Origin: Planctomycetota bacterium
GTDB taxonomy: Bacteria; Planctomycetota; UBA1135; UBA2386
Direction: 5' to 3'
Assembly: GCA_046306335.1 (NCBI GenBank)
Contig: JBKDXM010000033.1
Coordinates: 17,199 to 81,198, forward strand
DNA: 64,000 bases
Below, piece by piece: positions 9,357-19,655 of this stretch (its first letter is position 1; each line of letters begins with the position of its first letter). A program made the translations under genes and the position numbers. The notes below the pieces were generated by a model. That model was not told the DNA's origin and did no database searches. It saw only the letters and a program-made list of their open reading frames with translations.

Positions 9357-10463
9357 TCACTTCGCGGCAGCCAGCTTGCCAACCAGGCCCTTGGCGACTT
9401 CGGTCGCCGCGTCGCCGTCGTGGCCGCGGTAGTGGATGCGGCCCTCACCGTCGAGCACCACGATCGTCGGCCAGCCCTGGATCGCCCAGGCCTTGGGGAT
9501 CGGACCGCGCGTGCCATCGGGTCCGGCGTGGAAGCTGCGCCAATTGAGCTGGTTGTCGGCGACCGCCTTCTTGGCGCGCGCGATGTCCTTGTCGCTGTTG
9601 ACGCCGATCAGGGCGAACGGCTTGTCCTTCATCTCATCCACGAGCGACCGCTCGTGCGGGTACATGGCCCGGCAGGGGCCTCACCAGTCGCCCCAGAAGT
9701 CGAGGAAGACCACCTTGCCGCGGTAGTCGGAGAGCTTGAAGGCGACGCCGTCGAGGTCCGTGCCCTCGATGTCCGGCGCGACGACGCCGACGCCGAACTT
9801 CTCGCGCGTGTCGATGGCCTCGCGGATGCGGTCCTTGAGGTCCGCGTTGCTGGCGAGTTCGACGATCTTGGTCAACTCGCTCTTCGCGCCCTGGTAGAGG
9901 TCCGACTCGCGGTCCGCAGTCTCGATCGTCTTCTCGTGCTTGGCGAACACCGCCCAGCCGCGCACGTCGGCATTCGCGCTCTTGGCGAACTTCTCGGCGA
10001 TCGCCGGGGCCTTCTCCTCGCCGACGATGCGCGGCAAGAAGCCGATCAGGCTGCCGATCTGCGCCGTGGCCGGGTGGTCGGCGAACTTCTCGCCGAGGAG
10101 CGCCAGCGCGTCGGCCGCGCCGGCGCGGTCGGCGCCGACCGCAAGCAGGAGGAACGGCACGGCGTCGTCGCCGTCGGTCATCTCCTTGGCGGCGGCGAGC
10201 GCCTGCTTGCCGATCGCGCTGGTGTCGGGGCGCATCGGCATCGCCGGCGCCGGCTTGCCGTCTTTCTTGGCGGCTTCGGCCTCGGCCGCCATGGCCTTGA
10301 CCTTCGCCATCCACTCGTCGCTCAGCTTCGTCTGCTCGGCCTGCAGCGCGGCGTACCGCTCGGCCGCGGCCGGACTCTTCGGCGTCGGCTGCGGCGGCCG
10401 CTGCTGCGCCGCGAGGGTCGCCGCGAGCAACAGCGGCAGCGCCCACTTCGTGATCGTTCGCAT
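9357..10463 (-). CDS. TlpA/ResA-like periplasmic thioredoxin with in-frame UGA at the active site (probable selenoprotein, W-U-G-P-C); otherwise a disrupted pseudogene
   Basis: ORFs 9681..10514 and 9357..9665 share one frame. The junction reads ...GKVVFLDFWGDW-TGA(9683..9681)-GPCRAMYPHE... The start was chosen at ATG 10463, giving the signal peptide MRTITKWALPLLLAATLAAQQ. The C-terminal part (WPTIVVLDGEGRI) is a thioredoxin fold. Confidence 0.7.
9639..9656 (-). promoter_or_regulatory. Candidate bacterial SECIS apical hairpin
   Basis: The mRNA sense sequence CACGAGC-GGUC-GCUCGUG has a 7-bp stem and a GGUC tetraloop. The stem starts 24 nt after the UGA. An additional GGCCC-CUGCC-GGGCC hairpin lies immediately 3' of the UGA (9666..9680). 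Confidence 0.5.
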
Positions 10464-18825: not shown

Positions 18826-18872
18826 TGCGAATTCAAATTGGCGGCAGCGGTTCGGGTTGGTGAGGTGACGCG

Positions 18873-19655
18873 ATGGGAAAGCAGGCAAGGGCGCGCGCGG
18901 CGGATGCAACGACGGGCGCGGGCGCTGGTTCTCGGCCGAAGGGGCGAGCGCGGACGCGGTCACCGGCCGGCCGGCGACCGGTGCAGGGCTCGTTGCCGTT
19001 CCGCCAGCATGGCGGCGCGCGCCCGGGCGCTGGGCGCAAGCCCAACGGCGCTGCGCCGTTGATGGCCCGGACGACGCGGCCCTCGCACGCCGCCTACCAC
19101 CCGGCGCTGGTGACCGTGAAGCTGCGGCAGCACCTGCCGCGGCTGCGCAACCGCAAGGAACGCGCGGCGTTGCTCACCCACTTCGCGCGCGGCAAGGACC
19201 GCTTCGGTTTCCGGCTGCTGCATTTCGCCATCCTCAACGACCATCTGCACTTCGTCGTCGAGGCCAAGGACCGCACCGCGCTCAGCCGCGGACTGCAGGG
19301 GCTGCTCATCCGGCTGGCGCGCGGGCTCAACAAGCTCTGGGGCCGCAAGGGGAAGGTCTTCGCCGACCGCTACCACGACCGCGCGCTCAAGAGCCCGCGC
19401 GAGGTGCGCAACGCGCTGGTCTACGTGCTGGGCAACGGCAGGAAGCACGCCGCACAGGGCCGCATGATCGCGGCGTTCGAGGGGCCGGACATGTTCACTT
19501 CGGCGCCGTGGTTCGACGGCTTCGTCGAAGCAATCGAGGTGCGCGGCATCGACGGCATCCCGCTGCCGGTCGCGCGGGCGCGTACGTGGCTGGCGAACGA
19601 CGGTTGGCGCAGGCTAGGGAAGATCGGACTGGAGGAGCAGCCGAAGGTCGGGTGA
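18873..19655 (+). CDS. REP-associated tyrosine transposase (RAYT; IS200/IS605-like Y1 HUH transposase family)
   Basis: ORF 18873..19655, 260 aa. The HUH motif is NDHLHFVVEA. The Tyr motif is ALVYVLGNGRKH. Conserved GKVFADRYHDRALKSPREVRNAL block is present. The N-terminus is Arg/Gly-rich. Confidence 0.8.
   Translation: MGKQARARAADATTGAGAGSRPKGRARTRSPAGRRPVQGSLPFRQHGGARPGAGRKPNGAAPLMARTTRPSHAAYHPALVTVKLRQHLPRLRNRKERAALLTHFARGKDRFGFRLLHFAILNDHLHFVVEAKDRTALSRGLQGLLIRLARGLNKLWGRKGKVFADRYHDRALKSPREVRNALVYVLGNGRKHAAQGRMIAAFEGPDMFTSAPWFDGFVEAIEVRGIDGIPLPVARARTWLANDGWRRLGKIGLEEQPKVG

Follow-up and report, generated by a model that had tools for sequence, protein, structure and literature searches.

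Background

TlpA/Prx-like selenoproteins with a thioredoxin fold have been on record since 2005-2006, from genomes as well as metagenomes (PMC1088965, PMC1794560), and the TlpA-like proteins with a U-x-x-C motif (U, selenocysteine, Sec) are a described class (PMC1088965, PMC1794560, PMC4807772, and a 2026 review, PMC13188914). We investigated a candidate relative of this class in a 64,000-nucleotide stretch of DNA from a Planctomycetota bacterium (assembly GCA_046306335.1, contig JBKDXM010000033.1, positions 17,199 to 81,198), referred to below as the window. Judging from the sequence comparisons reported here, two adjacent annotated "genes" on its minus strand are almost certainly one gene, encoding an exported thioredoxin-like enzyme with a UGA-encoded catalytic selenocysteine. 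A preliminary description of the window had proposed such a gene and had stated, correctly, that U-x-x-C thioredoxin-fold selenoproteins occur in bacteria.

The described UxxC TlpA-like selenoproteins share with the window protein a TlpA/AhpC-TSA-type fold, Sec as the first residue of U-x-x-C and widespread Cys homologues, and they too were predicted computationally from an in-frame UGA and a downstream stem-loop. Compared by description (e.g. MGB1650493.1), the window protein adds a helical N-terminal domain of ~190 residues, and it differs in its fixed signature, FWGDW-U-[GP]-P-C-R-A-M-Y-P-H-E-R-S-L-V. Two split "thiol-disulfide isomerase-like thioredoxin" candidates from planctomycete P1 (PMC4807772, S9 Table), likewise compared by description, have in common with the window gene the phylum, the fold class, the division into two adjacent genes and a nearest homologue with Cys. 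For these, bSECISearch reported no selenocysteine insertion sequence (SECIS), whereas the window gene has an invariant hairpin that complies with the consensus.

Two NCBIfam models, NF041054 (ResA-like WAxxUGC) and NF053656 (TUGYCR), also represent a ResA/TlpA-like fold with an active-site Sec, and the former is similar in length (354 aa). The window protein scores far under both cut-offs (36.9 vs 300 bits and 18.8 vs 100 bits, respectively), and its motif, WGDW-U-GPC, differs. The gene is annotated as split because no NCBIfam model covers its family. TlpA (Bradyrhizobium), ResA (Bacillus) and CcmG/DsbE resemble it in their extracytoplasmic thioredoxin fold, W-C-x-P-C-type centre and G-W-P-T cis-Pro motif, with best matches to TlpA/ResA/DsbE-like chains in the Protein Data Bank (PDB) at E = 2e-18 to 1e-9. 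These proteins carry a nucleophilic Cys, while the window protein would have Sec instead, together with the extra helical domain. Scores against the ResA/TlpA/DsbE equivalog models stayed below threshold (NF002854, 66.3 vs 170 bits; NF047696, 48.1 vs 230; TIGR00385, 35.7 vs 123). By these scores the window protein is judged to have the same fold as ResA, TlpA and DsbE and to be nearest to them in NCBIfam, but an orthologue of none. No literature report was found for the motif WUGPC or UGPC.

Results and discussion

A single reading frame across an in-frame UGA

The features that define the gene and its predicted active site are as follows.

9357..10463, minus strand: complete predicted selenoprotein gene, 368 codons including one UGA (Sec261), and the stop at 9359..9357
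9681..9683, minus strand: UGA predicted to be read as selenocysteine, nucleophilic position of the U-G-P-C motif; TGA in 80/80 loci, Cys in relatives
9672..9674, minus strand: predicted resolving Cys of U-x-x-C, codon TGC; Cys in 100% of 77 sequences, encoded by TGC in some and TGT in others

The minus-strand frame runs from the ATG at 10463 (MRTITKW...) to the stop, and its sole interruption is the TGA at 9683..9681. The junction reads ...GKVVFLDFWGDW-TGA(9683..9681)-GPCRAMYPHERSLV..., or with a longer downstream portion ...GKVVFLDFWGDW-[TGA]-GPCRAMYPHERSLVDEM..., which places the TGA at the nucleophilic Cys position of TlpA/ResA-type thioredoxins (FWGDW-U-GPC). Much of the preliminary description held here. 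It had proposed two minus-strand open reading frames (ORFs) in the same frame, separated only by this TGA and five sense codons, which reading the strand confirmed; a UGA at the catalytic Cys of a TlpA/ResA/DsbE-like thioredoxin, across which Pfam and PDB matches do extend; and two halves that make no sense alone, in keeping with a thioredoxin fold and active site that are complete only across the junction. It had also placed the upstream ORF from 10514; the frame was right, while the homologues begin at MRTITKW (10463) and not at the upstream ATG.

As anticipated, the gene is mis-called in GenBank as two ORFs, a 260-aa "hypothetical protein" (e.g. MFN6145409.1) and a 102-aa "TlpA family protein disulfide reductase" (e.g. 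MFN6145408.1). Sequence identical to that of the window was found in independent assemblies, on at least 23 contigs, and gene calling divided it every time into pieces of 260 aa and 102 aa. The Cys codons TGC and TGT lie a single-nucleotide change from TGA, and the interruption might thus be a mutation in a pseudogene, or else a mistake in sequencing or assembly. The recurrence of the same TGA in these contigs excludes both a misread base and a pseudogene private to one genome, which answers the sequencing-error check that had been suggested. Moreover, 80 species-level genomes have the TGA followed by an intact frame, at N-terminal domain identities of only 30-88%, and we regard this explanation as effectively refuted.

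Relatives were collected in a scan with one genome per species, which gave 410 confirmed relatives; the best 80 of these 410 loci, nearly all from Planctomycetota metagenome-assembled genomes (MAGs), were analysed, and codon statistics refer to 77 distinct sequences. The codon after FWGDW was TGA in all 80 loci, with TAA, TAG or a sense codon (Cys included) in none. The TGA is followed in frame, in every locus, by [G/P]-P-C-R-A-M-Y-P-H-E-R-S-L-V and ~90 more conserved residues, ~105 in total. A search with the read-through protein gave a matching picture: among the matches listed, ~100 of 120 clusters were ~260 aa long, covered 71% of the query and ended exactly at ...FLDFWGDW, with identities from 100% down to 42%. 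Sec/Cys pairing was also observed, with WCGPC or WCPPC in P0100, P0105, P0108, P0109, P0111 and P0119, and with a TGC or TGT codon at the UGA site in the DNA of L085, L087 and L089. Homologues therefore carry TGA or, less often, Cys at exactly this codon.

Codons +1 to +5 after the TGA are particularly informative as they precede the first possible restart ATG. Gly+1, Pro+2, Cys+3, Arg+4 and Ala+5 are kept as amino acids while each is encoded by 2-4 synonymous codons. Such synonymous change ahead of any restart codon indicates that the stretch is translated in frame and that ribosomes pass the UGA. This bears directly on the annotated reading, under which the TGA is an ordinary stop between two genes, one for a 260-aa secreted helical protein with a partial thioredoxin fold and one for a 102-aa fragment starting at the ATG at 9665. 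Gene callers and GenBank annotate it so, and TGA is the commonest stop in the genome. Neither product, however, has a complete thioredoxin fold or active site; the five codons between TGA and ATG are under protein-level selection; the putative start Met (Met+6) is present in only 83% of the 77 sequences, hence absent in 17% of relatives; and the TGA is fixed across the loci, while ordinary stops interchange with TAA and TAG. We consider the two-gene reading very unlikely. Where two separately conserved genes had been looked for in close relatives, one frame conserved across the TGA was found instead.

An invariant hairpin downstream of the UGA

Two hairpins can be drawn 3' of the UGA.

9639..9656, minus strand: candidate SECIS apical hairpin CACGAGC-GGUC-GCUCGUG, loop at 9646..9649, encoding His-Glu-Arg-Ser-Leu-Val; invariant nucleotides
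9666..9680, minus strand: proximal hairpin GGCCC-CUGCC-GGGCC, present in the window, without conservation in relatives

The distal hairpin begins 24 nt after the TGA, with arms CACGAGC (9656-9650) and GCTCGTG (9645-9639) around GGTC (9649-9646). From the UGA to the start of the loop the distance is 31 nt in every locus, and no indels were observed. Codons +9 to +13 are CAC GAG CGG TCG CTC (His-Glu-Arg-Ser-Leu) in 76 of the 77 distinct sequences, so that each position uses a single codon even though six are available for Arg, Ser and Leu. The same codons are used even in loci with 47-49% G+C (L066, L073, L074, L080, L083), and the flanking Pro+8 and Val+14, equally conserved as residues, use four codons each. 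In ACGAGC-GGUC-GCUCGU, six pairs are invariant across the 77 sequences, and a seventh, C-G, is present in 64. The sole variant (L057) changes A to G, converting an A-U pair to G.U; the pair is kept at the cost of a Glu-to-Gly replacement.

Folded alone, the hairpin has an energy of -10.5 kcal/mol with 7 bp or -7.9 kcal/mol with 6 bp. These values, the 4-nt loop starting with GG, the 6-7 bp stem and the 31-nt spacing agree with the bacterial SECIS (bSECIS) consensus, for which PMC13188914 gives a spacing of 16-37 nt and an energy threshold of -7.5 kcal/mol. The preliminary description had placed the hairpin at this position and spacing and its loop within that range, and both were as described. 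It had also likened the loop to the GGUC apical loop of the Escherichia coli fdhF SECIS, and this matches NC_000913, where GGUC occupies nt 22-25 after the U of the UGA. Both signals are mRNA hairpins with a GGUC loop that lie within the coding sequence, shortly after the UGA. They differ in that the loop starts 31 nt after the UGA in the window gene vs 18 nt in fdhF, and in that the window stem is a perfect 6-7 bp helix without a bulged U, unrelated in sequence to the fdhF stem. In the fdhF SECIS, the G and U of this loop contact SelB.

The proximal hairpin had been noted as a second element. It is present in the window, but it is probably incidental and outside the signal because relatives with U-P-P-C cannot form GGCCC/GGGCC. 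RNAalifold also proposed helices GGUG/UGCC and GGG/CCC, the latter with one double change in 2 sequences; both are too weak to claim.

Extra nucleotide constraint was seen in the 77 relatives at codons +15, +7 and +4 (window 9636..9638, 9660..9662 and 9669..9671). Codon +15 is Glu in 40 of the 77 sequences and GAA in 39 of those 40 despite G+C-rich genomes, and the window has GAT (Asp) at this position; Tyr+7 has no codon other than TAC; and CGG encodes Arg+4 in 73 of 77, low-GC loci included. RNAalifold, which proposes just the weak additional helices, does not account for this constraint.

Relatives that have lost the UGA

The 14-mer ACGAGCGGTCGCTC occurs 93 times in the 1.54 Mb of DNA analysed, each time at one fixed distance from the active-site codon. 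That codon is TGA at 89 occurrences, TGC or TGT at three and CGA at one. An intact hairpin core was found in three forms without UGA, namely TGT (L087), TGC (L089) and CGA/Arg (L088), which look like recent single-nucleotide derivatives. The TGC form in L085/L086 has a synonymous GAG to GAA change that breaks a stem pair, and in the TTG/Leu (L091) and TCC/Ser (L092) forms the core has decayed through several changes, including synonymous CGG to AGG and CTC to CTA. Read as a series, relatives without UGA either keep the hairpin as an apparent fossil or let it decay, and stages of SECIS decay after Sec loss are visible.

We also scanned metagenome DNA for FWGDW-Cys-x-Pro-Cys and obtained 33 stretches. 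The peptide at +9 to +13 was unrelated in 32 of them (e.g. PNYPKLI, PILEEIA), the one exception being the L089 contig again. Neither the fold nor the active site thus requires H-E-R-S-L, and it is the RNA signal that imposes this peptide.

The Arg, Leu and Ser forms (L088:1913, P0051; L091:2775, P0010; L092:2802, P0043) are full-length and would be without a nucleophile. Loss of enzyme activity, gain of a new function and errors in single contigs are all possible explanations.

Genetic code and selenocysteine machinery

The window has 73% G+C, and TGA is the commonest stop, ending most window ORFs with strong codon-position bias. A six-frame scan of the 64 kb found one TGA flanked on both sides by 60 stop-free codons with high G+C at the third position, the TGA at 9683..9681. 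A single coding-flanked TGA, in a window where TGA ends most well-supported ORFs, indicates that the code is not reassigned and that the pattern is not a chance product of the window.

This result matters for a reading that accepts read-through but dispenses with selenium, in which a near-cognate tRNA (Trp, Cys or Arg) decodes the UGA with the aid of a generic stimulator hairpin, or UGA is a sense codon in the lineage. The Sec machinery was not located in the window or the related loci searched, and the single-nucleotide derivatives with Cys, Arg, Ser and Leu exist; both would fit such decoding. The absence of code reassignment argues the other way, as does the exact position of the codon at the redox-active Cys, the signature of Sec/Cys pairs (PMC13188914). 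The hairpin, too, has a SelB-type G-G/U loop at an allowed distance, and several Planctomycetes are documented to have complete Sec machinery (Kim et al. 2016, PMC4807772). Selenium-free read-through is therefore very improbable in our assessment, though it is the least improbable of the alternatives we weighed.

Several results weigh against decoding of the UGA as selenocysteine. Neither the window nor ~1.5 Mb of related loci yielded genes for selA, selB, selD or tRNA-Sec. ARAGORN returned no tRNA-Sec for the window and 60 related loci, a Pfam scan of 20 window ORFs showed no SelA, SelB or SelD domain, and tblastn searches of the window and all loci with approximate probes for SelA, SelB and SelD of E. 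coli gave one weak match, to the SelB probe, which is EF-G. As sel genes are usually unlinked to selenoprotein genes, their lack in the window and related loci was not counted as a negative. The intact hairpin in three relatives without UGA means that the hairpin alone is no proof of current recoding. RNAalifold on the 77 sequences found no compensatory covariation, only the one A-U to G.U change and no double change in the helix, the hairpin being invariant. Local fold energy was unremarkable in its G+C-rich context (z = -0.63 and -1.7), and Rfam searches at gathering and permissive thresholds gave no SECIS family match, only chance matches to miRNA and lncRNA families. Lastly, the neighbouring genes offer no hint of the substrate or electron donor, and no cytochrome-maturation or copper-chaperone genes were seen on inspection of the neighbourhood.

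Domain architecture

The read-through protein can be divided as follows.

10404..10463, minus strand: putative signal peptide or membrane anchor (MRTITKWALPLLLAATLAAQ), from sequence inspection, alignment and helix 5-19 in the model
9798..10373, minus strand: predicted all-helical repeat (alpha-solenoid-like) domain, aa 31-222, AlphaFold2 predicted local distance difference test (pLDDT) 95-98
9408..9791, minus strand: TlpA/ResA-like thioredoxin-fold domain, aa 225-352, spanning the UGA, from Pfam and PDB 2lrn, 3gl3 and 4nmu
9468..9470, minus strand: Pro332 of G-W-P-T, putative cis-proline, from the sequence and the 2lrn/3gl3 alignment, the cis conformation by analogy

With Cys substituted for Sec, Pfam matches for the TlpA-like thioredoxin-fold family (cd02966) extend across the junction, namely Redoxin (8e-16, 58.6 bits, cut-off 26.6), AhpC-TSA (2e-15, 57.4 bits, cut-off 26) and Thioredoxin_8 (9e-14, 52 bits, cut-off 27). 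PDB chains that align across it are 2lrn (2e-18), 3gl3, 4nmu and 1jfu, all TlpA/ResA/DsbE-like thiol:disulfide oxidoreductases. The sequence and the 2lrn/3gl3 alignment place the redox motif W-U-G-P-C at 260-264, with U261 and C264, and G-W-P-T at 330-333.

Residues 1-20 (WALPLLLAATLAA-Q) look like a signal peptide, with A19 and Q20 nearly invariant in homologues. The helical N-terminal domain noted earlier was recovered in an AlphaFold2 model of the 260-aa N-terminal half, which has ten helices in aa 31-222 and a mean pLDDT of 89.9, rising to 95-98 over aa 31-222. Pfam gave no match to this region, and a PDB fold search returned weak generic matches to designed helical repeats and armadillo/HEAT proteins (E >= 0.02, TM ~0.3). 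The model thus suggests an alpha-solenoid-like domain without a specific structural match.

Proposed function and significance

Taken together, it is highly probable that the locus is a single gene for a ~38-kDa exported selenoprotein, in which a signal peptide precedes ~190 residues of helical repeats and a TlpA/ResA-type domain with Sec at the attacking position of the C-x-x-C motif. The UGA at 9683..9681 would be recoded during translation, with ACGAGC-GGUC-GCUCGU, 31 nt downstream, recruiting SelB-GTP-Sec-tRNA(Sec) to the ribosome. When selenium or SelB is lacking, termination at the UGA would leave a 260-aa fragment without a complete thioredoxin fold. By analogy with TlpA and ResA, the mature enzyme most likely carries out thiol:disulfide reduction in the periplasm. 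The substrate disulfide, or an oxidised group such as a sulfenate, would come under attack from Sec261, after which Cys264 would resolve the intermediate so that a selenenylsulfide forms. Re-reduction of the enzyme may fall to a CcdA/DsbD-type electron shuttle in the membrane. The helical domain could plausibly act as a docking module for a substrate or partner. The comparisons demonstrate one conserved frame, a conserved UGA that ribosomes pass, selection on the nucleotides of the hairpin and the assigned fold; decoding as Sec in preference to other amino acids, the binding of SelB, the periplasmic site, the direction of the reaction, the substrate and the electron donor are inferred.

UxxC thioredoxin-fold selenoproteins and coding-region SECIS hairpins are already textbook matter for bacteria, and the gene therefore opens no new mechanism. 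What is specific to its family is the helical N-terminal domain, the scale of unannotated members in Planctomycetota, the phylum-wide invariance of the SECIS nucleotides with its imprint on the peptide, and the visible stages of SECIS decay. As an example of an RNA signal that holds a coding region fixed across a phylum, in nucleotides and amino acids alike, it is very clean. The window gene and hundreds of relatives in Planctomycetota MAGs have been deposited as two ORFs, with no NCBIfam model to rescue them, and selenium use in the phylum is consequently under-counted. The signature FWGDW-UGA-[GP]PC...CACGAGCGGTCGCTC would recover the mis-split genes directly.

A broader reading, which we offer tentatively and rate at somewhat less than an even chance, is that these genes, with 410 confirmed genome hits, represent a subfamily of exported selenoproteins that is common throughout Planctomycetota and has yet to be described. 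Such a subfamily would combine a Sec-thioredoxin module with a single ultra-conserved, built-in SECIS cassette (UGA, 31 nt, ACGAGC-GGUC-GCUCGU) that dictates H-E-R-S-L. It would have diversified through tandem duplication and varied N-terminal helical domains and would leave a datable "fossil" SECIS after Sec loss, and its alpha-solenoid may target a substrate class new for TlpA-like reductases.

Paralogues, neighbouring genes and other observations

While the window holds a single copy, tandem or multiple Sec-TlpA paralogues per genome were observed at L036 (3199, 3770), L052 (601, 1567) and L074 (1143, 1804), and multiple copies per genome also occur in the paired loci L012/L072, L023/L078, L041/L076 and L051/L058. 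Paralogues within one genome have an identical SECIS core and differing N-terminal regions. For P0044, P0070 and P0083, the called ORFs begin just after the UGA (AMYPHERSLV...) and continue into a helical region and a second thioredoxin-like domain with a degenerate CxxC (FQGNRYSPGRDM, FSANRYSPDRDM, FWNDLYVHGSAKY), which suggests a larger architecture of a Sec-thioredoxin plus a pseudo-thioredoxin domain.

Downstream of the window gene lie S46 and M14 peptidases, and upstream an ion channel, a Complex1_51K (NuoF-like) protein and RlmL; the gene order is syntenic within the closest clade. Elsewhere in the window, an ORF at 18864..19652 (plus strand) has a weak match to an IS200-like Y1 transposase (E = 2.4e-4), under the Pfam cut-off.

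Finally, a second in-frame TGA in a different gene was observed at L046:20266 (plus strand), ~9.5 kb from the TlpA-Sec gene of that locus, reading ...DNDGDKDLLVTNGFTSHSQRELPDW-U-TCWWRQV.... Fourteen nt further on lies GGCGGCA-GGU-UGCCGCC, a canonical hairpin of 7 bp around a GGU loop. The gene probably encodes a further selenoprotein and lends indirect support to the recoding proposed for the window gene. It is reminiscent of the 'FG-GAP / ASPIC UnbV' candidate reported from planctomycete P1 (PMC4807772).

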